This document shows, one piece after another, positions 4,948 to 60,219 of a stretch of 64,000 nt of DNA. Both the position numbers and the translations under genes were made by a program. The number at the start of each line of letters is the position of its first letter. Position 1 is the stretch's first letter. The notes below the pieces were generated by a model. It saw only the letters and a list, made by a program, of their open reading frames with translations, did no database searches and was not told the origin of the DNA. The stretch comes from an uncultured Clostridium sp. (GTDB lineage: Bacteria > Bacillota > Clostridia > TANB77 > CAG-508): assembly GCA_947648905.1 (NCBI GenBank), contig CANSPP010000001.1, forward strand, positions 460,114 to 524,113. The letters are read 5' to 3'.

Positions 4948-5010
4948 TGTCCAATTGGGGACGTTTCTTTCTTGGATATGTCCAAAAAAGAAACGTCCCC
5001 AATTGGACAT
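4948..5010. repeat. REP-like palindromic element: inverted pair of the unit GAAACGTCCCCAATTGGACA
   Basis: TGTCCAATTGGGGACGTTTCTTTCTTGGA tat gTCCAAAAAAGAAACGTCCCCAATTGGACA; arms nearly perfectly complementary (~28 bp). Confidence 0.8.
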
Positions 5011-7284: not shown

Positions 7285-7391
7285 AATACTATTGAATTAT
7301 ATCATAAGCAAAAAAGAATATCAAGAGAAAGATACTAAATATTAAGAGGTAAACGCATATTGAATTTACATAAAAAAAGTGTCGAAAATTG

Positions 7392-7426
7392 ACTATTTAT
7401 GTAAAAGTATGCTATAATATCGAAGA
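7392..7426 (+). promoter_or_regulatory. Promoter TTGACT, 17 bp, TGcTATAAT, followed by an ~110 nt structured leader
   Basis: Seen in sequence. Confidence 0.45.
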
Positions 7427-7912: not shown

Positions 7913-8005
7913 AAAATAGAAACCGCAAAAGCGGTTTTTATTTTTTTGAACCCACGATATTAATACAACAAACAGAAAACGTGAAATAAAATCGTAAAAT
8001 ATCTT

Positions 8006-8048
8006 GACTTAATTCATAACTATTTATAAAATAGTTATGAATTAAGTC
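8006..8048. promoter_or_regulatory. 17 bp perfect inverted repeat (GACTTAATTCATAACTA n9 TAGTTATGAATTAAGTC) overlapping the -35/-10 (TTGACT ... TAAAAT); putative repressor operator
   Basis: Seen in sequence; an imperfect copy lies upstream of the paralogue at 10890-10934. Confidence 0.6.
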
Positions 8049-8218
8049 TATTTTTGTACATAGTAAAATTAAGAACAAAGAATACTATTTGCGAAAGTGG
8101 AAATAATTTAAATAAAGAAAATAATATATTACTTATTTACATAATGTAAAAATATGTAATAAAATAAAAAACAGTAAAGCAAAAGAAAAAGCAAAACAAA
8201 AGAGAGGAGAAATTTTTT

Positions 8219-9391
8219 ATGCAAATAAAAAATAGAAAAACAAATAACAAAGGTATTACATTAATAGCTTTAGTAATTACAATTATAGTATTATTAATCT
8301 TAGCAGGAGTAGCAATAGCGACGTTAACAGGAGATAATGGAGTACTAACAAAAGCAGCAAAAGCGAAACAAGAAACACAAAAAGCGACAGAAGACGAGCT
8401 AAGAAGACTAACAATGTTAAAAGCAATATCAAACATTGAAAATACAACGTATACAGAGACTAATGGAGATAAAGCAACTATTCCAGCTGGATTTGCGGTG
8501 TCACAAGTAGAAGGAGAAAATACAGTACAAAACGGATTAGTTATAATAGATGCTAATGGCAATGAGTTTGTATGGATACCAGTACCAACTGCTATATCAG
8601 ACACAGAAGCAAATGGAACAACAAATAAGGCAATGGCAATAAATTTGGGAACAGAAGAAAATCCACAATATAGAGGATTGTTATATGACTTTACTGATAC
8701 AGACTCAACTGTAAGAAGTGGATGTACAACAACTACAAGTAGTTATAGAGAACCAGCATATTTAACAGATAGCTCAACTGGAGATGTATCTAGTTATAAT
8801 ACAGTAGGAATAACAGAAGCAAGCTTACAAAATGATTACAATGATATGATAAAAAGTGTATATTTAAATAATGGATTTTATGTAGCAAGATATGAGATGA
8901 GTTTAGATGCAAATAAAAATGCACAATCAAAGAAAAATGTAACATCAACAGATGCTTCACAGGCTGATACAAATATGTGGTATGGATTATATAATAAGGC
9001 TAAAAATTATGCATTAAAAACAGATACTACAAAAAATGTAGTAAGTAGTATGATATGGGGAAGCCAATATGATGCAATGATGAATTGGATGCATAAAGAT
9101 AGTAATGTAAATGTTAATTCAAAAACACCTGTAGCAGGGACAAGTAAAAATACAACAAGAATAACAGGTGGACCAAATGAAGGAGAAACTGAAAGTAAAG
9201 ATATATTAAAAAATGTATATGATTTATTAGGTAATAGTAGGGAATGGACATTAGAGGCCTACAATTCCAGCTATCGACTTAGTCGTGGTGGCAGTTACGG
9301 CGACAGCGGTTCCCCAGCTAGTCGCGTCGGCAGCAATCCAGACGACACCAACGACAGCGGTGGTGGCAGGCTCGCACTTTATATAAAGTAG
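8219..9391 (+). CDS. Type-IV-pilin-like N-terminus + FGE-sulfatase/C-type-lectin-fold domain protein; putative DGR target, copy 1
   Basis: N-terminus MQIKNRKTNNKGITLIALVITIIVLLILAGVAIATLTG is a prepilin-like leader and hydrophobic helix. C-terminal domain has GNEFVWIPVP, GFYVARYEMS, MIWGSQYDAMMNWM, NVYDLLGNSREWTLE...RGGSY...R...GGRLALY, i.e. FGE-sulfatase (PF03781-like) motifs. The last ~125 bp (9261-9376) are GC-rich and A-poor. Confidence 0.75.
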   Translation: MQIKNRKTNNKGITLIALVITIIVLLILAGVAIATLTGDNGVLTKAAKAKQETQKATEDELRRLTMLKAISNIENTTYTETNGDKATIPAGFAVSQVEGENTVQNGLVIIDANGNEFVWIPVPTAISDTEANGTTNKAMAINLGTEENPQYRGLLYDFTDTDSTVRSGCTTTTSSYREPAYLTDSSTGDVSSYNTVGITEASLQNDYNDMIKSVYLNNGFYVARYEMSLDANKNAQSKKNVTSTDASQADTNMWYGLYNKAKNYALKTDTTKNVVSSMIWGSQYDAMMNWMHKDSNVNVNSKTPVAGTSKNTTRITGGPNEGETESKDILKNVYDLLGNSREWTLEAYNSSYRLSRGGSYGDSGSPASRVGSNPDDTNDSGGGRLALYIK

Positions 9392-9848
9392 GACTGAATG
9401 CTGTGAAAACTAAAATTAAAACTAATTCGAGAGCAGTTTTAAATAGAGTAATTGAATATAAGAACTCGGCGAATGTAAGTTGAAGCTTCCTTTTGGAAGC
9501 TTTTTTTGTGCGTCTTAGCACAAAAAACTTCTGGAGAAGAATTTAAGCCAATAGGAACAGAAAGCTATCTATAGGCAGAAGTACAAATGGTAAAGACCTT
9601 TAATTGATATTCTATTTTAAATTGGCAATAAAATAGAGAAACTTACATTTTTTATCTGAGTGAATTGCATCAGTAAACAATTTTTTTTGCAAATAACCTC
9701 CCTACCCGCTCCATTTTATATCAACTTACGAACTAATAAGTTTGTAGGTTATTTTTATATATAAATTTTAACATTAAAAACAATAAAGGACTTGACAATG
9801 GAGAACAAATGTTTTAAAATATATAAAGTAAGAAAAGGATGTGAAATC

Positions 9849-10748: not shown

Positions 10749-10889
10749 ATGTTTGAGGTCACAAATTGTGACTTCAAAGGTATTATAAAATATTACATCT
10801 AAATGTAGTGTTACAATAGATGTGAAACAAGAGAAAGAAATCCGTACGACATTAATATAATAAACAGAAATAAAATCGTAAAACATATT

Positions 10890-10934
10890 GACTTAATTCG
10901 TAATTATTTATAAAATATTTATGAATTAAGTCTA
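10890..10934. promoter_or_regulatory. Paralogous promoter/operator palindrome (imperfect copy of 8006-8048)
   Basis: gacttaattcgtaattatttataaaatatttatgaattaagtc. Confidence 0.5.
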
Positions 10935-11097
10935 TTTTTGTACATAGTAAAATAAAGAACAAAGAATACTATTTGCAAAAGTGGAAATAATTTAAATAAA
11001 TAAAATAATATATTACTTATTTACATAAAATAAAAATATGTAATAAAATAAAAAACAGTAAAACAAAAGAAAAAACAAAAGAGAGGAGAAATTTTTT

Positions 11098-12270
11098 ATG
11101 CAAATAAAAAATAGAAAAACAAATAACAAAGGTATTACATTAATAGCTTTAGTAATTACAATTATAGTATTATTAATCTTAGCAGGAGTAGCAATAGCGA
11201 CGTTAACAGGAGATAATGGAGTACTAACAAAAGCAGCAAAAGCGAAACAAGAAACACAAAAAGCGACAGAAGACGAGCTAAGAAGACTAACAATGTTAAA
11301 AGCAATATCAAACATTGAAAATACAACGTATACAGAGACTAATGGAGATAAAGCAACTATTCCAGCTGGATTTGCGGTGTCACAAGTAGAAGGAGAAAAT
11401 ACAGTACAAAACGGATTAGTTATAATAGATGCTAATGGAAATGAGTTTGTATGGATACCGGTTCCAACAGCTATAGCAGAGAGTGAAGAGCAAGGAACAA
11501 TAAATAAGGCAATGGCAGTAAATTTAGGAACAGAAGAAAATCCACAATATAGGGGATTATTATATAATTTTACTGATACAGATTCAACTGTAAAAAGTGG
11601 ATGTACAACAACTACAAGTGAATTTAGAGAACCAGATATAGTAAGCAATTATGATAATGATGAACAAACATATTTAAATGATATAGGATTAACACAATCA
11701 AGTTTTCAAGCAGAGATGCAACAAGCATATAATGATATGATAAAAAGCGTAGATTTAAATCATGGATTTTATGTAGCAAGATATGAGATGAGTTTAGATG
11801 CAAATAAAAATGCACAATCGAAGAAAAATGTAACATCAACAGATGCTGCACAGACTGATACAAATAGGTGGTATGGATTATATGATAAGGCTAAAAATTA
11901 TGGATTAAAAATAGATACTACAAAAAATGTAGTAAGTAGTATGATATGGGGAAGTCAATATGATGCAATGATGAATTGGATGCATAAAGATAGTAATGTA
12001 AATGTTAATTCAACAACTCCAGTAACTGATGCAGTTAGAAATCAAGATACACAAAGAAGAACAGGATTTGTAGAAACGGATAAAATAAAAAATGTATATG
12101 ATTTATTAGGAAATAGTTACGAATGGACATTAGAGGCCTACCATTACAGCTCTCGAGTTTATCGTGGTGGCTATTACGGTAACAGCAGTTCACCAGCTAT
12201 TCGCTACAGCGACTATCCGTACTACACCTACAGCTACAATTCTTCACGTCTCACACTTTATATAAAGTAG
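11098..12270 (+). CDS. Pilin-like N-terminus + FGE-sulfatase/CLec-fold protein; putative DGR target, copy 2 (paralogue of 8219-9391)
   Basis: First ~120 codons identical to copy 1, middle diverged, same FGE motifs. C-terminal 12141-12255 is GC-rich and A-poor and differs from copy 1 mostly at A-containing positions. Confidence 0.75.
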   Translation: MQIKNRKTNNKGITLIALVITIIVLLILAGVAIATLTGDNGVLTKAAKAKQETQKATEDELRRLTMLKAISNIENTTYTETNGDKATIPAGFAVSQVEGENTVQNGLVIIDANGNEFVWIPVPTAIAESEEQGTINKAMAVNLGTEENPQYRGLLYNFTDTDSTVKSGCTTTTSEFREPDIVSNYDNDEQTYLNDIGLTQSSFQAEMQQAYNDMIKSVDLNHGFYVARYEMSLDANKNAQSKKNVTSTDAAQTDTNRWYGLYDKAKNYGLKIDTTKNVVSSMIWGSQYDAMMNWMHKDSNVNVNSTTPVTDAVRNQDTQRRTGFVETDKIKNVYDLLGNSYEWTLEAYHYSSRVYRGGYYGNSSSPAIRYSDYPYYTYSYNSSRLTLYIK

Positions 12271-12652
12271 GACTGAATGCTGTGAAAACTAAAATTAAAA
12301 CTAGTTCAAGAGTAGTTTTAAATAGTAATTGAATATAAGAACTCGGCGAATGTAATATGCCAAAGCACTTCCTGAAGGAAGTGCTTTTTTTGTGCATCTT
12401 AGCGTACAAGAAATCTTCTAAAAATAAAGAAAAAAGATGCAATATTGTTAAAGGGATATGTCCTGTTTCGCATCATTGACACTACAACAAAGATATTGGT
12501 ACTAAATTTTGAAAAATTATTGACAACAATGTAAAAATATGATAAAATTGGTAACTGTAATCCGCTTAGTCAAGGTACAAAAACATTAACAATAGGTTAA
12601 TTACCTTTATTTAAGGATTAGCGAGTATACAAATAAGGGAGGTGCATTTTAA

Positions 12653-42328: not shown

Positions 42329-44026
42329 ATGAAAAAAATATTTTTTAAAAATACAATTCTAACAGCATTAATATCAATAATAATATTTAATCTAACAGTC
42401 TTTTTAATACCAAATAGAGTACAAGCATCAACATATAACCAAATAACAATAAATGCAAATAGCAACAATAATAACGGAATAGATGCATTTCCAGAAAGCT
42501 ATCAAATAATGTTAAAAAAATTGGTAGAAGACACAGGACACTCAAATTGGAAATTTAAACCGTTTTACACAGATATCAGTTGGGATGAACTAACAAGTTC
42601 AGATAATGAAAACAAGTGCCTAAGAAATACAATACACCAAAGTAATGGCTCATGGCTTTGCCCTTGTGGGCAACAAGGGGATAGAGGATATTATTGTGCA
42701 TCAAGAAGAATAGTAAATTACTATTTAGACCCAAGAAACTTTTTAACAGAAACAACAATATTCCAATTTTTAGACTTATCAAATCAAACAGTAATACCAA
42801 TAGAACAAATACAAAAAGCAGTAGAAGGAACATATTTAGCAGGGAGTGTTAATGGAGTATCATATGCACAAATGATATATGATGCAGCACAAGAGTCAGG
42901 AGAAAATGCATTAAGCATAACAGTAAAAATATTTCAAGAATTAGGTAAGGGAAATACCTTGCCAGGAATGATAAATGGAAAAGATGCTACATATCCAAAT
43001 ACATATAACTTCTTCAATTATGGAGCATCAGACGGAGAAGGAAATACACAAAGGGGACTAGCATATGCTTCTAGAGCAGGGTGGAACACACCAAGAACAG
43101 CATTAATAGAAGGAGCAAAATTAATAGCTAATTCATATGTGAAGGTAGGACAAAATACAAAGTATACATTTAAATTTGACATAGTAGCAGACAATTCAAC
43201 AGGGCTATATTGGCATCAATATATGACAAACATACAAGACCCAACAAACCAAGCTAAAATGTTATTTGATGAATACTTAAACAATGGATGGCTAAATAAT
43301 GAATTAACATTTGTAATTCCAGTTTATAAAGATATGCCAGCATATGTAAAATTGCCAAGCAGTTTAACAACAAATGATGGAACATTATATTTTATAAGTT
43401 CTAGATATTCAGATGTGGCAATAAGAACAGGATATAGTTCAGGAGCTACAACTATTGAGTATTTAAAAAGAAATACACCAGTTTTAATGCTAAATTATAA
43501 TGAGAATAATACAGGTTGGTCAAAGGTTAGAGTAAATGGTAGAGAAGGTTATGTTATTAATGATTATTTAACACCTGTTAATACAAAGGTTGATACATAT
43601 AAGGTACCAAATCAACCAGGAGATACACAACTACCTACAGTAATAGGTGGAACAAATTTTGAATTACAAGGCTCATATATTATTGCTGAACCAGGGACTA
43701 AGTTAAGTGATATCAAAGCAAAATATAATGTTATATCAGCTACAAAGGATGGTGTAGCAATATCAGATCAGGAAAGTCTAGCGACAACAGCTTGTATAAA
43801 CATTGATAACACAGTATATGTTGTTGCTAAACTAGGAGATGTTAATGGAGATGGTTATATTACTCCAATAGATTATGTAAAAGTTGTAAATAAAATTATG
43901 GGAGTAACAGTCTTTAATGAAGTAAGTATAAAAGCAGCAGATATAAATAGAAATGGAGAAATTAGTCCAGAAGACTATGTGAAAATTGTAAATCAAATTA
44001 TGGGAAATTCAAAAATAGAACTATAA
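42329..44026 (+). CDS. Secreted GH73-type glucosaminidase + SH3b domain + C-terminal type-I dockerin
   Basis: Signal peptide; dockerin repeats GDVNGDGYITPIDYVKVVNKIMG and AADINRNGEISPEDYVKIVNQIMG. Confidence 0.6.
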   Translation: MKKIFFKNTILTALISIIIFNLTVFLIPNRVQASTYNQITINANSNNNNGIDAFPESYQIMLKKLVEDTGHSNWKFKPFYTDISWDELTSSDNENKCLRNTIHQSNGSWLCPCGQQGDRGYYCASRRIVNYYLDPRNFLTETTIFQFLDLSNQTVIPIEQIQKAVEGTYLAGSVNGVSYAQMIYDAAQESGENALSITVKIFQELGKGNTLPGMINGKDATYPNTYNFFNYGASDGEGNTQRGLAYASRAGWNTPRTALIEGAKLIANSYVKVGQNTKYTFKFDIVADNSTGLYWHQYMTNIQDPTNQAKMLFDEYLNNGWLNNELTFVIPVYKDMPAYVKLPSSLTTNDGTLYFISSRYSDVAIRTGYSSGATTIEYLKRNTPVLMLNYNENNTGWSKVRVNGREGYVINDYLTPVNTKVDTYKVPNQPGDTQLPTVIGGTNFELQGSYIIAEPGTKLSDIKAKYNVISATKDGVAISDQESLATTACINIDNTVYVVAKLGDVNGDGYITPIDYVKVVNKIMGVTVFNEVSIKAADINRNGEISPEDYVKIVNQIMGNSKIEL

Positions 44027-48602: not shown

Positions 48603-48648
48603 TGATGTTTTTAGGACAGAGCAAAAAAACATCATTGAAAATAAATAA

Positions 48649-49956
<1,308 letters not shown>

Positions 49957-49962
49957 TGCCAA

Positions 49963-50037
49963 TTGTCCAATTGGGGACGTTTCTCTTTTGGACATTGACA
50001 TAAAAATGTCCAAGAAGGAAACGTCCCTAATTGGACA
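49963..50037. repeat. REP-like element (inverted pair of units)
   Basis: TGTCCAATTGGGGACGTTTC ... TGTCCAAGAAGGAAACGTCCCTAATTGGACA. Confidence 0.8.
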
Positions 50038-50062
50038 AAATTGAACTAAAAGGAGTAATAAT

Positions 50063-50563
50063 ATGAGTGGAGAAAAAAGAAAAGATTATCTAGGATGGGA
50101 CGAATATTTTATGGCAATAGCTAAATTGTCAGCAATGAGAAGTAAAGACCCATCAACACAAGTTGGAGCATGTATAGTAAGCAGTGACAACAGAATTTTA
50201 TCAATTGGATACAATGGAGCACCAAACGGATTTGATGATGAAAATTTCCCTTGGGGTAGAGAAGGCGAAAATTTGGATACAAAATATCCATATGTTTGTC
50301 ACGCAGAAATGAATGCAATTTTAAATTATAGAGGAAGTAAAAAAGATTTAGAAGATGCTAAAATTTATGTGGATTTATTTCCTTGTAATGAATGTGCAAA
50401 AATTATTATTCAGTCTGGAATCAAGGAAGTTATCTATTTGTCAGATAAATATGCAACTTCTGAAAACAACATAGCTTCTAGAAAATTGCTTGATGAGTGT
50501 GGAGTTAAGTATAGTAAAATTGATGTAGAAAACAGTAAAAAAATAATGATTGAAATAGGATAA
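50063..50563 (+). CDS. dCMP deaminase (ComEB/cytidine-deaminase family)
   Basis: HAEMNAI ... PCNECAKII zinc motifs. Confidence 0.85.
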
Positions 50564-50626
50564 AAAATATATATAAAAGGCTACTGACTTTTGTCAGTAG
50601 CTTTTTATATATATGATTATAAATAC

Positions 50627-51412
50627 CTAATTTTCTTGATTAAGTTCCTTCTCTTCCAACTGTCTTTGAGCCTGAGGCTTTTTCAAATACAAAGGAAGAA
50701 CATCTTTTAATTCTTCACCAGAATTAAACTTTGAAAAACCAGCCAATCCCAAAGCTTCAGAATTTAAAACATTAAAATCAGAAGAAGGAAAAATAGAATT
50801 TTCAAAACTTTGCTCAATAGTACTTCTATAAACTTCAGAACCATCACCACAAAAAGCAACAGGAGCACAATTTAAAGTATCTTGGCAATAACTATTTAAA
50901 ATAGCTAAAGCATTTTCAACACTTTCAGCTTGAGGCTCAATTAAAGTTATCAACCCATCATTTCTTTTCTCATATAATGCAAAATAGCAATTATCGTTTT
51001 TGCAATCAACTATGCTGCATACATATTTAATCTCATTTTGAAATATTTCAACTTTATTCTCAAATGTTTGCCTGATGCATTTTTGCTCTGTCCCAAAAAA
51101 CATCATCCCAAAAGCTAAAGTTTCTAAAGAACTAACACCAACACAAGGAATACTTAAGCTATCAGAAAATGCCTTTGCAGTAGCAACGCCAATTCTAATT
51201 CCAGTAAATGAGCCTGGTCCAATATCACAAACAATCAGATTGATGTCAGATGGTTTTGATTCAGATTTTTTCAAGGCTTCGTCTATCATTGGCATTAAAT
51301 TTTCTGAATGTGTTCTTCCAGTATTCGTGTCTAGTTTGCATATTAAATTTGTATTTTCTAAAATTGCAACGCCACATACATTACTGGATGTGTCTATACT
51401 TAAAATTTTCAT
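50627..51412 (-). CDS. tsaB: tRNA t6A37 threonylcarbamoyl transferase complex protein TsaB
   Basis: MKILSIDTSSNVCGVAILEN... Confidence 0.85.
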   Translation of the reverse strand: MKILSIDTSSNVCGVAILENTNLICKLDTNTGRTHSENLMPMIDEALKKSESKPSDINLIVCDIGPGSFTGIRIGVATAKAFSDSLSIPCVGVSSLETLAFGMMFFGTEQKCIRQTFENKVEIFQNEIKYVCSIVDCKNDNCYFALYEKRNDGLITLIEPQAESVENALAILNSYCQDTLNCAPVAFCGDGSEVYRSTIEQSFENSIFPSSDFNVLNSEALGLAGFSKFNSGEELKDVLPLYLKKPQAQRQLEEKELNQEN

Positions 51413-51849
51413 ATTAAAATCTCCTTTGAGCTAATTTCTAAAATTCTCATATTTTCATTTTCATCATCTTTATCAAAAACAATATGAATATAATCTTTTG
51501 GAAGAGCATCTTCGATTAATTCGCCCCATTCGATTAAGCAAATACCGTTTTCAAAATATTCCTCTCCACCAATTTCATAAAATTCAGAAGAGTCTTCTAA
51601 GCGATAAACATCAAAATGGTATATATTTATATCATCTTTATTATATTCATTTACAATTGTGAAAGTAGGACTAGATATTTCATTTTCTAAACCATAATAA
51701 GATAAAAAACCTTCCACAAATTTTGTTTTACCAGAGCCAAGTTCACCAGTTAAAACAACTACATCTTTTGGCTTTAATTTTGAAGCTAATTTTTTTGCAA
51801 AGTTTTTTGTATCATCTTCATTTTTTGCTATAAATTTATAGTGTTCCAT
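51409..51849 (-). CDS. tsaE: tRNA t6A37 ATPase TsaE
   Basis: VVLTGELGSGKTKFVEG. Confidence 0.85.
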   Translation of the reverse strand: MEHYKFIAKNEDDTKNFAKKLASKLKPKDVVVLTGELGSGKTKFVEGFLSYYGLENEISSPTFTIVNEYNKDDINIYHFDVYRLEDSSEFYEIGGEEYFENGICLIEWGELIEDALPKDYIHIVFDKDDENENMRILEISSKEILI

Positions 51850-52005
51850 AAAATCCTCCTGGATAAATTAATCAACTACAAGTATTATAATATAAAAAAA
51901 TAAAAAATTCAATGAAAAGGGTTGATAAATTTGAATACTTGTAATATAATCGTAATACATTTGTAATAAAAGAGAAACAAAAACAGTTAGAAAGGAAGAA
52001 AAAGC

Positions 52006-53010
52006 ATGTTTAAAATGGGGCAAGATATCGGTATTGATTTAGGAACAGCAACAGTAATAGCTTATGTAAAAGGAAAAGGAATAGTATTAAGAGAACCATC
52101 AGTTGTTGCAGTAAACAACGTTACAGGAGATGTTTTAGCAGTTGGACAAGAAGCAAGAAAAATGCTAGGAAGAACACCAGGAAACATAGTAGCAACAAGA
52201 CCACTAAGAGATGGAGTAATATCAGACTACACAGTAACCGAAAAAATGTTAAAATACTTCATAAATAAAATATGTGGAAAATTCATCTTTGCACCAAGAA
52301 TAATGATATGCATACCATCACAAGTAACAGAAGTAGAGAAAAAAGCAGTAATAGACGCAGCATCACAAGCTGGAGCAAGAAAAGTATATTTAATAGAAGA
52401 ACCAATAGCAGCAGCAATAGGAGCTGGAATAGACATATCAAAACCATGTGGAAATATGGTAGTAGATATAGGCGGAGGAACAACAGACATAGCAGTAATA
52501 TCATTAGGAGGGTCAGTTGTAAGCACATCACTAAAAGTAGCTGGAGATAGATTTGACGAATACATCGTAAAATATATCAAGAAAAAACATAATATGGTAA
52601 TAGGAGAAAGAACAGCAGAAGACTTAAAAGTAAATATAGGATGTGTATTCCCAAAAATACAAGACACAGAAATGCAAATAAGAGGAAGAGACTTATCAAC
52701 AGGGTTACCAAAAACAATAACAGTATATTCAAGCGAAATGCTAGAAGCACTAATAGAACCAGCAATGATGATAGTAGACGCAGTACACAGTGTGTTAGAA
52801 AGAACACCACCAGAACTAGCAGCAGACATAAGTGATAAAGGAATATATATGACAGGTGGAGGATGTTTAGTAGATGGGCTAGACAAACTATTACAAGAAA
52901 AAACAGGAATAAATGTAATGATAGCCCAAGACACAGTATCATGTGTAGCGTTAGGAACAGGAAAAGCATTAGACAACTTAGATGCACTAGAAGGAAAAAC
53001 AAGGAGATAA
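52006..53010 (+). CDS. mreB: Rod-shape-determining actin homologue MreB/Mbl
   Basis: DIGIDLGTATVIAYVKGKGIVLREPSVVAV... Confidence 0.9.
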   Translation: MFKMGQDIGIDLGTATVIAYVKGKGIVLREPSVVAVNNVTGDVLAVGQEARKMLGRTPGNIVATRPLRDGVISDYTVTEKMLKYFINKICGKFIFAPRIMICIPSQVTEVEKKAVIDAASQAGARKVYLIEEPIAAAIGAGIDISKPCGNMVVDIGGGTTDIAVISLGGSVVSTSLKVAGDRFDEYIVKYIKKKHNMVIGERTAEDLKVNIGCVFPKIQDTEMQIRGRDLSTGLPKTITVYSSEMLEALIEPAMMIVDAVHSVLERTPPELAADISDKGIYMTGGGCLVDGLDKLLQEKTGINVMIAQDTVSCVALGTGKALDNLDALEGKTRR

Positions 53011-53011
53011 A

Positions 53012-54313
53012 ATGAAAAAAGTAGCATTTATCACACTAGGATGCAAAGTAAACCAATACGAAACAAACGCAATGACACAAAAGTTTATAGAAAGTGGATA
53101 TGAAGTTGTAAACCAACACGAAAAAGCAGACATATACATAATAAACACATGCACAGTAACAAATATGTCAGATAGAAAATCAAGACAAATGCTTCGTAGA
53201 GTAAAAGATATAAACAATCAAGCCATTGTAGTAGCCTGTGGTTGCTATGCACAAGTAGCAAAAAATGAACTAGAAAAAATAGAAGAAATAGATATAATAC
53301 TAGGAAATAACGAGAAAAAAGAAATAGTAAAATACGTAGAAGAATTTGCAGAAAAACCTGCAAATTCTTTGAGTTGTTCAGATGTTATGTATAAAAAAGA
53401 ATTTGTAGACTTTGGAAACGTAACATACACAGAAAAAACAAGAGCAGTAATAAAAGTACAAGACGGATGTGACAGATTTTGTTCATACTGCATCATTCCA
53501 TATGCACGTGGAAGAGTAAGAAGTAGAAAACCAGAAAGTATAATATCAGAAATAGAAAAAATAGCAAAAGATGGAATAAAAGAAGTAGTAATAACAGGAA
53601 TACACGTAGCATCATATGGAAAAGACTTTAAAGAACAAGAATACAGACTAATCGATTTATTAGAAGAAATAAACAAAATAGAAGGAATAGAAAGAATTCG
53701 TCTAGGTTCAATAGAGCCACTACTAATAAATGAAGAATTTATGAAAAGACTAACAAAACTAGAAAAAATATGTCATCACTTCCATTTATCACTACAAAGC
53801 GGATGTGATGAAACTTTAAAAAGAATGAACAGAAGATATACAACAGAACAATTTAGAGAAATAGTAAAAATATTAAGAAAAAATTATGAAGATGTAATAC
53901 TAACAACAGACATAATAGTAGGATTTCCAGGCGAAACAGAAAAAGAATTTGAAGAAACATATCAATTTTTAAAAGAAATAAAATTCTATAAAATGCATAT
54001 ATTCAAATATTCACCAAGAAAAGGCACAAAAGCAGCAATGATGAAAGAACAAATTGATGGAAATAAAAAAGAAGAAAGAAGCCAAAGACTTATAGAATTA
54101 TCAAATAAAAATGAAAAGCAATACAATGAAACATATGTAGGAAAAACAGTTCAAGTCCTTTTTGAAGAAGAAAAGGATGGAATATATAAAGGTCATACAA
54201 AAAATTATATACAGGCATATTTGAGTGAACAAAACAACAAAGAAAATCTTGAAAATAAAATAGTTGAGGTTAAGTGCTATAAGGCAGAACAAGACCACAT
54301 AATAGTAAAATAA
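53012..54313 (+). CDS. Radical-SAM methylthiotransferase (MtaB/MiaB family) with TRAM domain
   Basis: KVAFITLGCKVNQYETNAM...; CDRFCSYCIIPYARG radical-SAM cysteine motif. Confidence 0.85.
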   Translation: MKKVAFITLGCKVNQYETNAMTQKFIESGYEVVNQHEKADIYIINTCTVTNMSDRKSRQMLRRVKDINNQAIVVACGCYAQVAKNELEKIEEIDIILGNNEKKEIVKYVEEFAEKPANSLSCSDVMYKKEFVDFGNVTYTEKTRAVIKVQDGCDRFCSYCIIPYARGRVRSRKPESIISEIEKIAKDGIKEVVITGIHVASYGKDFKEQEYRLIDLLEEINKIEGIERIRLGSIEPLLINEEFMKRLTKLEKICHHFHLSLQSGCDETLKRMNRRYTTEQFREIVKILRKNYEDVILTTDIIVGFPGETEKEFEETYQFLKEIKFYKMHIFKYSPRKGTKAAMMKEQIDGNKKEERSQRLIELSNKNEKQYNETYVGKTVQVLFEEEKDGIYKGHTKNYIQAYLSEQNNKENLENKIVEVKCYKAEQDHIIVK

Positions 54314-54464
54314 AAATGAAGAAGAAATGGTTAAAAGTAACAAAACTGTAATAATTATGTAATAAACATTTAATATAAGAAAACAGAAAAACTACTTGAT
54401 AAAAATAAAAAAGTATAGTATAAATAAAACAGAAGATGTAAAAAACACAAAGGAGGAAAATAAA

Positions 54465-54815
54465 ATGGCAGAAATAGGTGCAGAAAACAAAGTAGCAGGA
54501 GTATTCGGAGGAGTTGAAATAAACGGTGGAAACGCTGGAGAAAATGCAAATGGAGCAATTGGTGGATTCGAAGGAGCAGGAATGGAAGCAGGAACAATCA
54601 GAAACACAGCGCTACCAGCAAAAACAGGATTATGGACAAAATTTAAAGCATTCTGGCTACAAGAAATTGACTGGAATAAAGAAATAAAAGTAGAACTAAC
54701 ACCATATCAACAAAAAGTAGAAGACGAAATAAACGAATTTTTACACCAAGAAATTACATGGGAAAAAGTACACGACTTTTTATTCCAAGAAGTAACATTT
54801 GGAAAAAGAAAATAA
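54465..54815 (+). CDS. Hypothetical protein (116 aa), Gly-rich N-terminus, Trp-rich C-terminus
   Basis: AAAGGAGG RBS before ATG 54465; promoter TTGATA...TATAAAT upstream. Confidence 0.45.
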   Translation: MAEIGAENKVAGVFGGVEINGGNAGENANGAIGGFEGAGMEAGTIRNTALPAKTGLWTKFKAFWLQEIDWNKEIKVELTPYQQKVEDEINEFLHQEITWEKVHDFLFQEVTFGKRK

Positions 54816-54862
54816 TGTCCAATTGGGGACGTTTCTTTCCTGGACATTTTGTCCAGTTGAAT
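54816..54862. repeat. REP-like element (reverse-orientation unit) upstream of the RAYT gene
   Basis: TGTCCAATTGGGGACGTTTC tttcCTGGACAttttGTCCAG. Confidence 0.8.
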
Positions 54863-54988
54863 ATTTACATATCGTAATGTGAAAATTTAATGAATTTATA
54901 AAAAGGTATAGCAAGATTAAAAAAATTATGCTATACTTTTTAACGTATATAGGGGCTAAAATTAAACAAGAAGAAAGGAATGATAGTA

Positions 54989-55780
54989 ATGCCCCGTATG
55001 GCGCGTGAATTAAGTAAAACAAAAGTGTATCACATAATATTTCGTGGAAACGATAAACAGGATATATTCTATGATACACAAGATTACAAAAAATATTTAA
55101 AAGAAATGAAAAACACAAAAGAAAAATATCAATATGAAATATTAGCATATTGTCTGATGTCAAATCATGTACATTTAATAGTTTTTGACAAAAATGATAA
55201 TCTTTCGAAATCGATGCAAAGTTTAGCTATAGCATATTCAAGTTATTTTGCGAAAAAGTATGAAAAAGTGGGACATTTATTTCAAAATCGATTTTTAAGC
55301 AAAAATGTTGAGACACGAGAATATCTATTGCAATTATGTCGATACATTCATCAAAATCCAGTAAAAGCAAAAATTACAAAAGTAAATGAATACAAGTGGA
55401 GTAGTTATAACGAATATGTGAAATTGAATTTGAAAGAAAGAATGATAAATATAAACACAATATTGCCAATGTTTGGAGTTAATAGACAAGAAGCAATAAG
55501 GAATTTCGAAGCGTTCCATAGAAAAGAAGATGAACTTAATGATATAAATAAAGAGATTGAGTTTGAAATAAAAGAACGATTAACAGATGAAGAAGTGAAA
55601 ACGATAATAGAAGATATATTAAAAATAGATAATGTACTTGAAATCAAAAATTATGGTGTACAAAAAAGAAATGAAACAATAAGCAAGTTGGAAAATATTA
55701 AAGGAATAACAAAAGTACAAATAGCAAGGATAACTGGAATAAACAGAAAAATAATACAAAGAGTAATGAATAGTAAATAA
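54989..55780 (+). CDS. REP-associated tyrosine transposase (RAYT; IS200/IS605-like HUH Y1 transposase) with a C-terminal HTH
   Basis: HuH motif CLMSNHVHLIV; ...GHLFQNRFLSK...YLLQLCRYIHQNPVKAKI (catalytic Y region); bracketed by inverted REP units. Confidence 0.75.
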   Translation: MPRMARELSKTKVYHIIFRGNDKQDIFYDTQDYKKYLKEMKNTKEKYQYEILAYCLMSNHVHLIVFDKNDNLSKSMQSLAIAYSSYFAKKYEKVGHLFQNRFLSKNVETREYLLQLCRYIHQNPVKAKITKVNEYKWSSYNEYVKLNLKERMININTILPMFGVNRQEAIRNFEAFHRKEDELNDINKEIEFEIKERLTDEEVKTIIEDILKIDNVLEIKNYGVQKRNETISKLENIKGITKVQIARITGINRKIIQRVMNSK

Positions 55781-55816
55781 TGAATGTCCAAGAAAGAAAC
55801 GTCCCCAATTGGACAT
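55781..55816. repeat. REP-like element (forward unit) downstream of the RAYT gene
   Basis: TGTCCAAGAAAGAAACGTCCCCAATTGGACA. Confidence 0.8.
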
Positions 55817-55834
55817 TGGGAAAAGGAGGAAAGT

Positions 55835-57199
55835 ATGGCGAAAAATAAAACAATATTTGTATGTAGCGAATGTGGAAACGAATCAGCAAAATGGCTAGGA
55901 AAATGTCCTGCTTGTAATAGTTGGAATAGTTTTTACGAGCAAACAATAGTAGAAACAAAAGGAAAAGAAAAAGCAAGGAATGCAGGCGAGATGGCCACAC
56001 CTCAAAAACTTAGTTCATATGTAGCAAAAGAGACTTTAAGAACTCATACAGGTTTTGGAGAATTGGACAGAGTTTTAGGTGGTGGATTAGTAAAGGGCTC
56101 GCTAGTTTTGCTAGGTGGAGAGCCAGGTATAGGAAAGTCTACACTAATACTACAAATTTGTGATAAAATCAAAGGAGAAGGACAAGTTCTATATGTTTCA
56201 GGAGAAGAATCGGCAGAGCAAATAAAACTAAGAGCAGATAGATTAGGAATAAATAATGAAAATATTATGTTTTTAGGTGAAACAAATATAGATATAGTAA
56301 ATCAAGCAATTATAAATATGAACCCTAAATTGGTAATAATTGATTCTATTCAAACTATGTATTCAGACGATATAACAGCGGCAGCAGGAAGTGTTAGCCA
56401 AGTACGCGAAATTACAGGTCAAGTTATGAGAGTTTGCAAATCCAGAGCAATAACAACAATCATAATTGGACATGTTACAAAAGAAGGAAACATAGCAGGA
56501 CCAAGAGTTTTAGAGCATATGGTAGACACAGTTTTATATTTAGAGGGAGAAAGATATTTTTCATACAGAATTTTAAGAGGAGTAAAAAACAGATTTGGTT
56601 CTACAAATGAAATTGGAATGTTCGAAATGAGAGAAGAAGGAATGTGCGAAATTTCAGAACCATCAGACATACTAATTTCGGAAAGAGAAGACAATCCGGC
56701 AGGTTCTTGTATAGTCTCTAGTATGGAAGGAACAAGACCGATTTTAGTTGAACTTCAAGCATTGACATCACAAACAGTATTTGGATATCCAAAAAGGACA
56801 GCAAATGGAATAGACTACAATAGATTAGCACTGTTAATAGCTGTGTTAGAGAAAAAAGCAGGCTTAATGCTAGGTTCACAAGACGTATACTTAAACGTAG
56901 TTGGTGGACTAAAAATTAACGAGCCATCGATAGACTTAGGAATAATGCTGGTAACAGCATCAAGTTTTAAAAATGTAGCAATTCCAAAAGATATGATTAT
57001 AATAGGGGAAGTAGGTTTAACAGGAGAGGTAAGAAGAATAAATTTGATAGAAAAAAGGTTGAAGGAAGCAGAAAAATTAGGATTTAAAAGTTGTATAATT
57101 CCAGAAAGTAACAAAAAAGACTTGAAAGAAAAATACAAATTAGATATAATAGGCGTCAGAAACATTAATGAAGCGATGAAAAAAGTCGGGTTAAAGTAA
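55835..57199 (+). CDS. radA: DNA repair protein RadA (Sms)
   Basis: N-terminal zinc ribbon CSECGNESAKWLGKCPACNSW; Walker A GGEPGIGKST; Lon-like C-terminus. The ORF-table N-extension is REP translation. Confidence 0.95.
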   Translation: MAKNKTIFVCSECGNESAKWLGKCPACNSWNSFYEQTIVETKGKEKARNAGEMATPQKLSSYVAKETLRTHTGFGELDRVLGGGLVKGSLVLLGGEPGIGKSTLILQICDKIKGEGQVLYVSGEESAEQIKLRADRLGINNENIMFLGETNIDIVNQAIINMNPKLVIIDSIQTMYSDDITAAAGSVSQVREITGQVMRVCKSRAITTIIIGHVTKEGNIAGPRVLEHMVDTVLYLEGERYFSYRILRGVKNRFGSTNEIGMFEMREEGMCEISEPSDILISEREDNPAGSCIVSSMEGTRPILVELQALTSQTVFGYPKRTANGIDYNRLALLIAVLEKKAGLMLGSQDVYLNVVGGLKINEPSIDLGIMLVTASSFKNVAIPKDMIIIGEVGLTGEVRRINLIEKRLKEAEKLGFKSCIIPESNKKDLKEKYKLDIIGVRNINEAMKKVGLK

Positions 57200-57201
57200 A
57201 G

Positions 57202-57270
57202 GGACAAAAGGAAACGTCCCCAATTGGACATTTTGTCCAAGAGAGAAACGTCCCCAATTGGACACAATTG
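57202..57270. repeat. REP-like element (two direct units)
   Basis: GGGACAAAAGGAAACGTCCCCAATTGGACA ttttGTCCAAGAGAGAAACGTCCCCAATTGGACAcaATTGGACA. Confidence 0.8.
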
Positions 57271-57293
57271 GACAAAGGAAAGGAGAATTAGAG

Positions 57294-58373
57294 TTGAGAA
57301 CAGGCAAAGAAGACAACATAACAGAGATTTTAAAACTAATTGCGCCGGGAACCCCAATAAGAAACGGACTAGAAAACATTTTAAGAGCAAGAACAGGAGC
57401 TTTATTATTAATAACTGATAAAAACGAAGTATTAAAAGAAGTTGTAGACGGTGGATTTACAATAAATGAAGAGTATTCTTCATCTAAATTATATGAGCTG
57501 GCAAAAATGGATGGAGCGATAGTGCTAAGTGGAGACTTAAAGAAGATATTATATGCAAATGCACAGTTAATACCATCACATGAAATTTCAACATTAGAAA
57601 CTGGAACAAGGCATAGAACAGCAGAAAGAACAGCTAAACAAACTGGAGAACTAGTAATAAGTATTTCACAAAGAAGAAGTATAATCACAGTTTTTAAAGG
57701 AAATGATAGATATATATTAGAAGATACAGATGCAGTTTTAAGTAAGGCGAACCAAGCGATACAAACACTTGAAAAATATAAAAAAGTATTTGATAATAAA
57801 CTAAACATCTTGAATGAATATGAATTTAATGATATAGTAACATTACAAAATGTAATAGTTGCAATTCAAAGAGCAGAAATGGTTATGAGAATTGTAGAAG
57901 AAATACAAAGACAGATATATGAATTAGGAGACGACGGAAGACTTGTAAAAATGCAACTAGAAGAATTAATAGGTGGATTAGAAAAAGAAGAAGAACTAAT
58001 CATAAAAGATTATATTGTGCCAGGCAAGAAAAGAATAACGCCTAAAAAAGTAATAGAAAAATTGAATGATTTAGAATATGAAGAATTGGCAAGAGAAACA
58101 CTAATAGCAAAACTATTAGGATATGAAACTTTTGATAACTATGACGAAGTTGGAGTATACACTAAAGGCTATAGGATTTTAAGCAAAATACCAAGAATGC
58201 CAAATAATATAGTAGAAAATTTAATTGATTCATTCAAATCATTCCAACACATATTAGCAGCTGATATAGAAAGCTTGGACGATGTAGATGGAATAGGTGA
58301 AGTAAGAGCAAGAACAATAAAACAGTCATTAAAAAGAATGCAAGAGCAATTTATTTTTGATAATTTAATTTAA
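57294..58373 (+). CDS. disA: DNA integrity scanning protein DisA (diadenylate cyclase)
   Basis: ...ILKLIAPGTPIRNGLENILRARTGALLLIT...ELAKMDGAIVLS...TGTRHRTAERTAKQTG matches B. subtilis DisA. Start placed at TTG 57294 after AGGAGA; the ATG at 57258 lies inside the REP element. Confidence 0.85.
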   Translation: MRTGKEDNITEILKLIAPGTPIRNGLENILRARTGALLLITDKNEVLKEVVDGGFTINEEYSSSKLYELAKMDGAIVLSGDLKKILYANAQLIPSHEISTLETGTRHRTAERTAKQTGELVISISQRRSIITVFKGNDRYILEDTDAVLSKANQAIQTLEKYKKVFDNKLNILNEYEFNDIVTLQNVIVAIQRAEMVMRIVEEIQRQIYELGDDGRLVKMQLEELIGGLEKEEELIIKDYIVPGKKRITPKKVIEKLNDLEYEELARETLIAKLLGYETFDNYDEVGVYTKGYRILSKIPRMPNNIVENLIDSFKSFQHILAADIESLDDVDGIGEVRARTIKQSLKRMQEQFIFDNLI

Positions 58374-58407
58374 AATTATAAATAAAAATTTAACAAACGA
58401 AAGGAAA

Positions 58408-59208
58408 ATGAAAATGAAAACAAAAAATATTATATGGATAATTGCATTAATTTTAGTAATAATATTACTAGCAACAGTAGGATATGGATACTACAAAAAA
58501 ATAACTATGAAAGTAGAGAACCCAATAGCTACAATGGAAGTAGAAAACTTTGGAACTATAAAAATAGAATTGTATCCAGATTTAGCTCCAGAAACAGTAG
58601 CGAACTTCATAACACTTGCAAACAGAGGATTTTATGATGGATTAACATTCCACAGAATAGTAAAAGACTTTATGATACAAGGTGGAGATAAACAAGGAAC
58701 AGGAAGTGGTTCAGCAACTTTAGCAGATTTAAGAGATGGTGGAGAAGATACAGAATACTCAATAAAAGGTGAATTTATATCAAATGGAGTAAATAACAAA
58801 TTAAAATTTGAAGAAGGAGTTATAGGTATGGCAAGAAATGACTATACTTCATATTCTCCAAATTTAGCGGAAGAATCTTATAACTCTGGAAGCTCACAAT
58901 TCTTTATAATGACAAAAGAAACATCATCATTAAATGGATACTATACATCATTTGGTAAAGTAATAGAAGGAATGGATGTAGTACATAAAATAGAAGAAGT
59001 TGAAGTAAAATCAAATACAGAAGATGCAGAAAGCTCAGAAAGTTCAGAGGTTAGCACACCAGTAACCCCAGTAACAATCACATCACTTAAAGTAGAAACA
59101 AATGGTGTAAACTATGGAGAACCAAATACTTTAGAACCATTTAATTATATGAATTGGTTATATAAACAATATGGAATAGATCCAAGCAATTTATCAACAG
59201 CACAATAA
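58408..59208 (+). CDS. Membrane-anchored cyclophilin-type peptidyl-prolyl cis-trans isomerase
   Basis: N-terminal TM; GTIKIELYPDLAPETVANFITLANRGFYDGLTFHRIVKDFMIQGGD. Confidence 0.9.
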   Translation: MKMKTKNIIWIIALILVIILLATVGYGYYKKITMKVENPIATMEVENFGTIKIELYPDLAPETVANFITLANRGFYDGLTFHRIVKDFMIQGGDKQGTGSGSATLADLRDGGEDTEYSIKGEFISNGVNNKLKFEEGVIGMARNDYTSYSPNLAEESYNSGSSQFFIMTKETSSLNGYYTSFGKVIEGMDVVHKIEEVEVKSNTEDAESSESSEVSTPVTPVTITSLKVETNGVNYGEPNTLEPFNYMNWLYKQYGIDPSNLSTAQ

Positions 59209-59356
59209 AAATTATAAGAGCTTAAGAATATGTGTTAAGCTCTGTTCAATTAATTATATAATTTTAATAGAAAATTTTGAAAAACAGTTGACAAATGGGG
59301 TAGAAATTGGTTATAATATTAAATGTGCTCGAGGTTTAAAGGTGCACGTGAACAAT

Positions 59357-59434
59357 GGTGGATGTAGCGTAGTTGGTTAACGCGCCAGTTTGTGGCACTG
59401 GAGACCGTGGGTTCGAGTCCCATCTTCCACCCCA
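59357..59434 (+). tRNA. tRNA-His (GUG) with G-1
   Basis: G-1 then GTGGATG acceptor; anticodon arm CCAGT TTGTGGC ACTGG; T-loop TTCGAGT; CCCCA end. Confidence 0.8.
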
Positions 59435-59447
59435 TTTAATTTTATAT

Positions 59448-59522
59448 TGGGCTGTAGCCAAGCGGTAAGGCACCAGACTTTGACTCTGGCATGCGCTAGT
59501 TCGAATCTAGCCAGCCCAGCCA
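59448..59522 (+). tRNA. tRNA-Gln (UUG)
   Basis: TGGGCTGTAGCCAAGCGGTAAGGCACCAGACTTTGACTCTGG...; anticodon loop CTTTGAC; terminator hairpin follows at 59525-59552. Confidence 0.85.
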
Positions 59523-59664
59523 CTAAGACGAGATTTCAACATCTCGTTTTTTTATTTTTAAATTATAAAAAATCATTAAGCGGAAATAATAAAAGAGAAA
59601 CACCAAAAAAGTTCTATTTAATTACCCTAAAAAATATAAATGAATTATAGAAAGGGTGAAAAAA

Positions 59665-60051
59665 ATGGAAAGTTACAAAACAGGTTTTGAAGAAACAATA
59701 AAAAACATATTCAAAGGAATTGCAATAGCAATGATAACAACAGTAATTTTACTGTTAATATTCTCAATAGTACTAGCATATACAAACACAAGTGAAAACA
59801 CAATAACACCAGTAATAATAGTAGTTACAGGACTAAGTATATTGCTAGGAAGTTCAATTGGAAATATCAAAATAAAAAAGAATGGAATTATAAACGGCGC
59901 TTTAATAGGTGGAATTTACATACTAATACTTTATATAATTTCAAGTATATTAAACTGGAGATTTGGATTAAATATACAAAGTATAATTATGATAGCAGTA
60001 GGTATGGTTTTTGGGATAATAGGAGGAATCATTGGGGTAAACAAGAAATAA
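59665..60051 (+). CDS. Small membrane protein (hypothetical, 3-4 TM)
   Basis: RBS AAAGGGTG; hydrophobic helices. Confidence 0.5.
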   Translation: MESYKTGFEETIKNIFKGIAIAMITTVILLLIFSIVLAYTNTSENTITPVIIVVTGLSILLGSSIGNIKIKKNGIINGALIGGIYILILYIISSILNWRFGLNIQSIIMIAVGMVFGIIGGIIGVNKK

Positions 60052-60057
60052 ATATCC

Positions 60058-60130
60058 AAAAGAAGGAAAAAAGGAAACGTCCCCGAATGTCCCAAAGAGG
60101 GACAAAAAAGAAACGTCCCAAAATGTCCCA
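60058..60130. repeat. Degenerate REP-like element (two GAAACGTCCC units)
   Basis: GGAAACGTCCCCGAATGTCCCAAAGAGGGACAAAAAAGAAACGTCCCAAAATGTCCCAATAT. Confidence 0.7.
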
Positions 60131-60219
60131 ATATATTTTAAAATAATTTCCAAAAACAGTTGATATTTTTGGAAATTTAATATAAAATTTTATAGGACAA
60201 GTTAGATAAGGAGGACAAT

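Follow-up and report, generated by a model that had tools for sequence, protein, structure and literature searches.

The stretch of DNA analysed here (hereafter the window) comprises 64 kb of an uncultured Clostridium sp. (contig CANSPP010000001.1, positions 460,114 to 524,113). It carries a gene for a Y1/HUH transposase that lies between two inverted copies of a short repeat, and the same repeat recurs in other spacers of the window. The order of genes at the locus is MreB, MtaB (or MutS2), a small open reading frame (ORF), the transposase, radA, disA and a peptidyl-prolyl isomerase (PPIase). The window was searched for the 20-mer GAAACGTCCCCAATTGGACA with up to three mismatches, and 100 shuffled sequences served as control. 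Eight matches were found (4948/4990, 49964/50018, 54816, 55796 and 57211/57245), where 0.01 are expected by chance, and none of the 100 shuffles reached eight. The 20-mer is part of a 31-nt unit, TGTCCAAGAAAGAAACGTCCCCAATTGGACA. The features of the window that bear on the repeat and the transposase are as follows.

4948-5009, divergent rluA-groES spacer: inverted doublet of units with a 29-bp stem, similar to a REPIN (a hairpin-forming doublet of repetitive extragenic palindromic, or REP, sequences); missing from the near-identical strain L135.
49964-50037, between obg and a dCMP-deaminase gene: inverted doublet, preceded by a partial terminal duplication, CCAATTG.
54816-54846, minus strand: left terminal unit of the transposase element; its outer end, TGTCCAATTGG..., touches the TAA of the ORF at 54396-54815.
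54841-54856, plus strand: subterminal small hairpin TGGACA-TTT-TGTCCA, a degenerate counterpart of the inner module GTCCCAtctGGGACACATC of the orthologous loci.
54900-54941, plus strand: inverted repeat AAAAGTATAGCA-N14/15-TGCTATACTTTT with arms of 12 nt, upstream of the transposase gene.
54989-55780, plus strand: Y1/HUH transposase of 263 aa, probably of the REP-associated tyrosine transposase (RAYT) or TIRYT type, with H60/H62 in the HUH motif, Y119 in YIHQNP, and WSS.
55785-55815, plus strand: right terminal unit, with its outer end 20 nt upstream of the radA start codon and the ribosome-binding site (RBS) alone in between.
57201-57274, plus strand, radA-disA spacer: two direct units (57201-57230 and 57234-57264) and a 10-nt terminal duplication.
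About 60058-60131, plus strand, after a membrane-protein ORF: divergent variant with boxes GAAACGTCCC(C), TGTCCC and GGGACA.

The copies in the window lie between rluA and groES, between obg and the dCMP-deaminase gene, on either side of the transposase gene (towards the small ORF and towards radA), between radA and disA, and after the membrane-protein gene. All are intergenic, so the gene map agrees with an earlier account made from the letters of the window alone (the sequence-only reading). That account listed six repeat loci. Five hold the unit at the places it gave, and the sixth, at about 60058-60131, reads GAAACGTCCCC-GAATGTCCC... and is a divergent variant with related boxes rather than a copy of the 31-nt unit. 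The match coordinates agree with its statement that five of the six loci lie within 10 kb, and the inverted pair that it placed around the transposase ORF is found as two arms (54814-54848 and 55783-55817) that are 35 nt long and 97% complementary. As it also noticed, the repeats generate spurious N-terminal extensions, and naive ORFs carry MSNWGRF or MSKKETSPIGHW. The transposase gene has five of the six loci (49964-60131) at a distance of about 5 kb or less, and additional units near the gene are also seen at orthologous loci, with three repeat loci in 8.8 kb of L111; this clustering may reflect local action of the enzyme or mere operon density.

The grouping of five loci within 10 kb, together with element ends that resemble terminal inverted repeats (TIRs), is what one would expect of a local duplication, or of miniature inverted-repeat transposable elements (MITEs) moved by a DDE transposase and unrelated to the Y1 protein. 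A genome scan for the exact 20-mer, with one genome per species, retrieved at least 110 stretches from 38 species-level assemblies. The sequence-only reading had asked whether the unit is confined to this region; since it occurs on many contigs and in many assemblies, local duplication fails as an explanation. The best-sampled metagenome-assembled genome (MAG) has at least 25 units in 10 stretches on 8 contigs. Among the matches listed, all MAGs are labelled uncultured Clostridia, Eubacteriales, Clostridium or Bacillota and come from human, chicken and other gut samples; none of these listed matches is from the window's own species, and the best nucleotide identity is about 88%. The 20-mer had no match in viral contigs, which also led us to reject a phage origin of the repeat. 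A DDE transposase gene with the same TIRs was not seen in about 900 kb of loci, and target-site duplications (TSDs) around the elements were not found beyond chance, the length distribution being that of shuffled partners. As the repeat is also consistently linked with the Y1 gene, as described below, we consider local duplication or DDE-driven MITEs extremely unlikely.

The gene between the arms encodes a Y1/HUH transposase, as had been read from its motifs. The protein matches Pfam Y1_Tnp (PF01797, gathering score 23 bits) over residues 13-123 with 56.4 bits and an E-value of 4e-15, and 27 of the 27 sequences in our orthologue profile (56-100% identity) match as well. HVH is the HUH motif and RYIHQNP the tyrosine motif. 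H60, H62, Y119, N123 and P124 are invariant in the 27 orthologues, and so is the serine motif W137-S138-S139. The tyrosine signature of class 2, Y---NP (PMC6006769), is present as YIHQNP. With the NCBIfam models, the protein scores 71.7 bits against REP_Tyr_transpos (NF047646, equivalog cut-off 80 bits) and 21 bits against IS200 (cut-off 55 bits), which places it on the RAYT side. A search of PDB with the single sequence gave no match. When the profile of 27 orthologues was used, the sole sequence match was 4ER8, the E. coli TnpA-REP bound to a REP hairpin, and the alignment spans the HUH motif, the (W/F)Q.RF block, the Y...NP helix and the W.S motif that follows. The same structure is the best fold match of the AlphaFold (AF2) model (pLDDT 88; E 1e-6, TM 0.73), followed by the transposases of IS608, ISDra2 and IS200 at about 1e-4, in agreement with the ferredoxin-like fold of Y1/HUH enzymes. 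These scores and matches support the earlier placement of the protein among RAYTs rather than with ordinary IS200 transposases.

The C-terminal ∼115 residues of the transposase are helical in the AF2 model, and the last two helices span residues 242-249 and 253-261. All Pfam matches in this region (HTH_23, Sigma70_r4_2 and CENP-B_N) are sub-threshold. When the C-terminal domain was modelled separately (pLDDT 75), no fold match was significant; the highest-ranked, non-significant ones are DnaA domain IV and KorA at E of 0.9 or more. Of the C-terminal helix-turn-helix (HTH) proposed earlier, the helical nature thus stands and the HTH identity is only suggested; judging from the model, it is plausible that the two short end helices resemble one. 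A Pfam '3H domain' match in 19 of the 27 orthologues lies inside the Y1 core below its cut-off and was taken as fold noise.

The association of gene and repeat is seen in every lineage we checked. Orthologues located by tblastn and exact-protein look-ups define nine transposase lineages (the window, L061, L084, L111, L115, L121, L122, L123 and L124); the orthologous proteins are 51-75% identical, and identities over the nine lineages span 51-100%. In all nine, and throughout the loci L061, L084 and L111-L124, the transposase occupies the same slot before radA-disA. For the two proteins P0005 and P0058, every one of the 44 contigs read shows this slot and none shows another. Upstream of the gene lies a unit in minus orientation and downstream a unit in plus orientation, in 9/9 lineages. 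The core GGGGACGTTTC is kept in 8/9 of these loci, which were ascertained by protein and are free of selection by the 20-mer. The full TIR reaches about 57 nt in L061, where the unit is followed by TTTT and by another small hairpin, GTCCCAtctGGGACACATC; an inner module GGGACAC(A) is found in L061, L111 and L122. The flanking repeat of the L124 lineage differs and reads GGCATGGGGAC(A/T)GTCCCCAT, and it is this type, not the GGGGACGTTTC type, that recurs in another spacer of the L124 locus. Since the flank of the gene and the other spacer share their own repeat, repeat type and gene lineage co-vary. In Logan assemblies, many homologues lie on contigs of about 1 kb that end in repeats, which is the size of the element and is as expected if both of its ends are multi-copy; contigs with the groES or the deaminase gene also start inside the adjoining elements.

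Away from the transposase, the units build short elements of regular anatomy. Statistics were computed over the 110 loci of the pattern scan (L001-L110) and the window, with units up to 600 nt apart counted as pairs. There are 57 pairs in -/+ orientation and none in +/- orientation, i.e. the outer ends always point out. The elements are 59-417 nt long, with clusters near 150 and 291-297 nt; the transposase is found in three elements of about 1.0 kb. Inverted arms of up to about 45 nt, TGTCCAATTGGGGACGTTTCTGTTTGGGACATTTTTATGTAAAG, are seen in many species. Between the arms lie AT-rich centres, which are often themselves palindromic and which are unrelated between copies. We also considered an outward promoter in which the conserved CATAAAAAT of the inner TIR extension would serve as -10, and rejected it because no consistent -35 was visible by eye in the variable centres.

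This anatomy could in part be that of an ordinary autonomous element of the IS200/IS605 family, with the short pairs as deletion derivatives similar to palindrome-associated transposable elements (PATEs) or MITEs. Such an origin would account for the Y1_Tnp domain, for the ends shared by the 1-kb and the short elements, for the absence of TSDs and for assemblies that break at element ends. It does not account for a gene that keeps one syntenic site in nine lineages down to 51% identity and shows no other context in the 44 contigs, nor for a score of 21 bits where the IS200 model asks for 55. Furthermore, the ends are long inverted repeats and not distinct left and right subterminal hairpins, and no similarity to the transposase element is seen in the centres of the short ones. 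We therefore regard this explanation as very unlikely, and count it, like DDE-driven MITEs, among the unlikely alternatives.

The elements turn over between strains and species. In strain L135, whose right flank is 100% identical to the window, the 4948-5009 doublet is absent, together with about 17 adjacent bases, and a patch of substitutions lies next to it. The junction between the two strains is irregular and gives no clean empty site from which exact ends or a target could be read. In a second species, L115 and L117 (99.2% identical) have two different disA-PPIase spacers, one of which holds a related doublet. In some strains (L117 and L119, about 7355-7400), this distinct doublet, which reads GGGTCCATTGGGACC-A-GGTCCCAATAGACCC, stands in place of the disA-PPIase spacer of L115 and hints at several repeat sub-families. 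Among species, the trpS-obg spacer is empty in the window (48603-48681), holds a single unit in L049, and holds a unit and a Fic-domain gene in L059 and L052. The gene adjoining the unit in L059 (3361-4115) is Fic/DOC-like with the motif HPFREGNGR. When occupied orthologous sites of different species are compared, identity is about 96% in the arms, 89% in the coding flanks and 53% in the centres, with large changes in length; the identity of the arms is biased upward because the loci were retrieved by the exact 20-mer.

Inverted doublets are certain to form hairpins. As DNA, they fold at -31 kcal/mol with z of about -11; as RNA, they fold at -53 to -82 kcal/mol with z of -12 to -17 and form duplexes of 29-46 bp. 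A single unit reaches -3.9 kcal/mol and z of -2.6 as DNA, and z of -0.4 to -1.3 as RNA. The property of hairpin formation, earlier ascribed to all copies, hence holds for the inverted doublets and is weak in single units. Within a unit, the boxes TGTCxxA and TxxGACA can pair around a 17-nt loop that contains the invariant core GGGGACGTTTC, and compensatory stem variants occur in five lineages, with the box pairs TGTCCAA/TTGGACA, TGTCTCA/TGAGACA, TGTCCCA/TGGGACA, TGTCGCA/TGCGACA and TGTCCT/AGGACA. A hairpin of the single unit is possible but unproven. Classical REPs and bacterial interspersed mosaic elements (BIMEs) are imperfect palindromes of 20-40 nt with a short loop and a GTAG (or CGTC) tag at the 5' end. 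The unit does not fit this pattern, as it has a terminal stem of 4-7 bp around a 17-nt loop and lacks GTAG. In Rfam at gathering thresholds, only tmRNA and tRNAs were matched, with no match at the units.

The units avoid coding sequence, a point that the sequence-only reading had proposed to check. When ORFs of at least 100 aa are counted as coding, 156 of 193 units are strictly intergenic, though 83.5% of bases lie in such ORFs; the rest of the units are mostly at ORF edges or are antisense artefacts. Paired elements lie between 29 co-directional, 17 convergent and 4 divergent gene pairs. Of 186 outer ends, 177 could be classed: 114 face a stop codon and 63 face a start codon. Among the 114 stop-facing ends, 37 follow the stop codon at 0 nt (TAA 27, TGA 5, TAG 5), roughly in the proportions of general usage, and 64 of the 108 stop-facing ends with a non-negative distance are within 3 nt of the stop. 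In co-directional spacers, the element is on the side of the stop codon in 23 of 27 cases (p = 3e-4), and in about 10 of the 17 convergent pairs it makes up the entire spacer. In a simple scan for terminators, the unit is called in its outer part when read inwards, with the stem AATGTCC/GGACGTT followed by a T-rich tail; such calls account for 8 of 11 sites in one 13-kb region.

The abutting junctions read TAA, TGA or TAG directly followed by TG, as at window positions 54813-54816. In 97-99% of ends, TGTCC is preceded by A, T or G, so that a potential start codon is formed, and the two positions immediately outside the element are almost devoid of G. A coding micro-ORF at this stop/ATG overlap (TAA followed by TG) finds no support, as no downstream frame or stop is conserved. 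Candidate explanations of the contact with stop codons are selection in very short operon spacers, deletions that are biased to leave only functional arms as the genome is streamlined, or a role at the ends of transcripts.

Such placement raises the alternative that the units are chiefly cis-elements of the host (transcript-end, terminator or attenuator hairpins, RNase III sites or sites for a DNA-binding protein), and that the transposase is incidental or a maintenance factor. It would agree with the 37 ends at 0 nt and the 64 within 3 nt, the 23 of 27 elements on the stop side, the convergent spacers filled as a whole, the stem and T-rich tail flagged as a terminator, the 29-46-bp RNA duplexes of the doublets, and arms that are better conserved (about 96%) than flanks (89%) and centres (53%). 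This last point is inflated by the way in which loci were selected, and the hairpin of a single unit is weak and has no strong U-tract. Start codons, too, have units before them (63 ends), as does one divergent promoter region within it, and placement after stop codons is also noted for REPs in a passage of Di Nocera et al. (PMC3733652). The association of repeat and transposase in 9/9 lineages, with the switched repeat type of L124, also speaks against the alternative. We consider it unlikely that the units are primarily host elements; a cis-acting role is compatible with, and does not exclude, the TIRYT-type system to which we turn.

RAYT-like genes flanked by long TIRs have been described by Di Nocera et al. 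(2013), who introduced the terms 'TIRtron' for such an element and 'TIRYT' for its protein; the motif GGGGWSAS is common to many of the TIRs, and some TIRs belong to moderately abundant dispersed families found as singles, dimers and clusters (PMC3733652). Quentin et al. (2018) placed TIRYT proteins in subclass 2.1, with a C-terminal HTH/DnaA-C-like domain, a serine motif and Y---NP, mapped RAYT group 1 of Bertels onto this subclass, and found no REP-like sequences near its genes (PMC6006769). In the survey of Bertels et al. (2017), Clostridia are among the hosts of group 1, and the 16-mers that flank its genes reach only about 12 copies (PMC5581495). The system described here resembles TIRtrons in having a RAYT-like Y1 gene between long TIRs (35 nt and 97% in the window, about 57 nt in L061) that belong to a dispersed family of singles, dimers and clusters. 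Compared with GGGGWSAS, the window reads GGGGACGT (6/8) and the L124 lineage GGGGACAG (8/8). It differs from TIRtrons in its host, an uncultured clade of low-GC gut Clostridia in which the same core is kept across many species, in the fixed slot upstream of radA-disA, and in the unrelated centres of its pairs and the many units that abut stop codons. With subclass 2.1 and group 1, it shares Y---NP, the WSS serine motif, a long protein with a C-terminal helical extension, a low copy number and occurrence in Clostridia. Unlike that group as surveyed, it has a clear cognate repeat family.

Some likeness to the REP/REPIN-RAYT systems of Enterobacteria and Pseudomonas is also evident. E. coli TnpA-REP (4ER8) is the best match in sequence and fold, the gene is single- or low-copy and vertically inherited with inverted flanking repeats, the doublets form long hairpins, and the intergenic repeats lie mostly after genes and lack TSDs. 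In contrast to these systems, there is neither a GTAG tag nor a tight palindrome of 20-40 nt; a C-terminal domain absent from TnpA-REP is present, and the score is below the equivalog cut-off. The likeness to REPINs is clear for doublets and hairpins, while the centres differ; the best MAG holds at least 25 units. The Y1/HUH fold and chemistry, the logic of single-strand hairpins and the lack of TSDs are shared with IS200/IS605 elements and palindrome-associated miniatures, from which the system differs in that its gene is not multi-copy or mobile, its ends are inverted repeats, and the IS200 model gives 21 bits.

Taken together, we consider it likely that the locus represents a TIRYT-type RAYT system, or TIRtron, with a cognate repeat family. 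Because the features fit the TIRYT branch (TnpA-REP subclass 2.1, RAYT group 1) and differ from those that define classical REP/BIME and IS200, it would appear, on these features, to be a clear member of that branch. The core of the sequence-only reading, a dispersed REP-like family of which inverted copies flank a single RAYT-type gene, is upheld by at least 38 assemblies and 9/9 lineages. Its label of a BIME/REP and RAYT arrangement is right in that a repeat family accompanies a RAYT, and has to be revised in that the repeats are not a GTAG-tagged REP/BIME and point rather to the TIRYT branch.

Several observations weigh against a TIRYT-type system with cognate repeats. Action of the enzyme on the repeats is a prediction from homology, and the score of 71.7 bits is under the RAYT equivalog cut-off of 80 bits. 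Neither the GTAG tag nor the short, tight hairpin of classical REPs is found in the units. The fold of a lone unit is hardly more stable than that of shuffled sequence, and most dispersed copies pair TGTCCAA with TGGGACA or TGAGACA, which leaves 4-5 bp of the 7-bp stem. The unrelated centres are not predicted by a simple copy-and-paste of a master element, and the junctions of gain and loss between strains are not clean element boundaries. As the loci of the pattern scan were picked by the exact 20-mer, the apparent conservation of arms is inflated. Finally, the numbers of units and of transposase copies per genome are only bounded, with at least 25 units in the best MAG.

The fold and motifs of the protein, its fixed locus, the flanking and dispersed repeats and their co-variation with the gene lineage, the intergenic placement anchored at stop codons, the absence of TSDs and the turnover between strains are direct observations. 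How such a system could work is suggested by homology and by the placement of the repeats, from which we infer that the transposase would act on the repeats and that these may serve the host. A single, vertically inherited Y1/HUH gene, fixed upstream of radA-disA between long inverted copies of the 31-nt unit, would be the source of the enzyme, and the outer-end-out pairs with a short variable centre would be non-autonomous elements similar to REPINs or MITEs. By homology with TnpA-REP and with transposases of the IS608 type, the enzyme would bind the folded unit or arm in single-stranded DNA, and could recognise the invariant core GGGGACGTTTC presented between the TGTCxxA and TxxGACA boxes. 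Cutting and rejoining by the HUH/Tyr centre would maintain, copy or remove repeats without target duplications. Selection could then retain repeats at places where they are harmless or useful, right behind stop codons and between convergent genes, where the long hairpins could serve as transcript-end, RNase III or terminator-like structures.

One may go further and imagine, in place of a selfish repeat that is simply tolerated, a domesticated module of the whole clade, in which the TIRYT gene is fixed in the radA-disA repair operon, perhaps co-transcribed with radA-disA, and maintains hairpin cassettes, with arms that hardly vary among dozens of species, as portable transcript-end, insulator or RNase III elements. 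This view would draw on the cassettes 0-3 nt from stop codons, on the filled convergent spacers and on the overlap with the start of radA in some lineages. We offer it as a speculative and rather doubtful extension of the TIRYT reading.

The combination of a TIRYT/RAYT gene with a repeat family is an arrangement already described and little studied; the present case is a Firmicute example, and an unusually clear one, from a phylum where TIRYT-type systems are hardly described. Proteins of RAYT subclass 2.1, or TIRYT, form the second largest Y1 class, and we know of no demonstrated DNA partner for them. A subclass-2.1-like gene that has unmistakable cognate repeats in many related genomes, and whose repeat type has naturally changed in one lineage, would make a tractable test case for biochemistry. 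In practice, the repeats break metagenome assemblies of these gut Clostridia and create false N-terminal extensions in ORF calls. The anchoring at stop codons offers a route to asking whether usefulness to the host retains the repeats.

We would like to point out some further features of the locus. The inverted repeat at 54900-54941 is kept in 9/9 lineages in its arms AAAAGTATAGCA/TGCTATACTTTT, and its spacer is not conserved. The right arm resembles an extended -10, TGcTATACT. From its sequence, the repeat is probably a promoter/operator, and possibly an operator for autoregulation. Commonly, radA-disA follows ctsR-clpC. A CtsR operator was rejected, as the heptad arrangement GGTCAAA-N3-GGTCAAA is not present. 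The small ORF at 54396-54815 (108-139 aa across the loci) always precedes the transposase and has a conserved C-terminus, ..FQEVTFGKRK, that ends at the stop codon; neither it nor its orthologues had a Pfam match. On the other side, the radA ATG of L121 (about 3850-3860), L122, L123 and L124 shares a base with the end of the right unit (...TGGACATGGCAAAAAG), and there is no room for a Shine-Dalgarno sequence between the two. A micro-ORF further upstream in L121 and L122, with its own Shine-Dalgarno sequence and ATG (MC..ETSP.GHGKK, then stop), crosses the unit and ends 10 nt inside radA, an overlap that suggests translational coupling to radA.

The outermost 9-11 nt of the unit are repeatedly found in partial tandem duplication, e.g. 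CCAATTGTCCAATTGG and AATTGGACACAATTGGACA. They are seen in the window at 49957-49974 and 57254-57274, in L121 and L123, and in the comparisons of L018 with L095 and of L031 with L056, and may be the footprint of a cutting and joining reaction, or of slippage.

Elsewhere in the window, 7983-9446 and 10867-12325 form a tandem duplication of about 1.5 kb, with an offset of about 2.88 kb and copies 81-97% identical, and its promoter/RBS region resembles a third site near 17979. The regions 34794-37119 and 43829-44005 hold tandem coding repeats of 340/680 nt, which likely belong to a repetitive surface protein, and also two dockerin-like calcium-binding repeats (GDVNGDGYITPIDY...).

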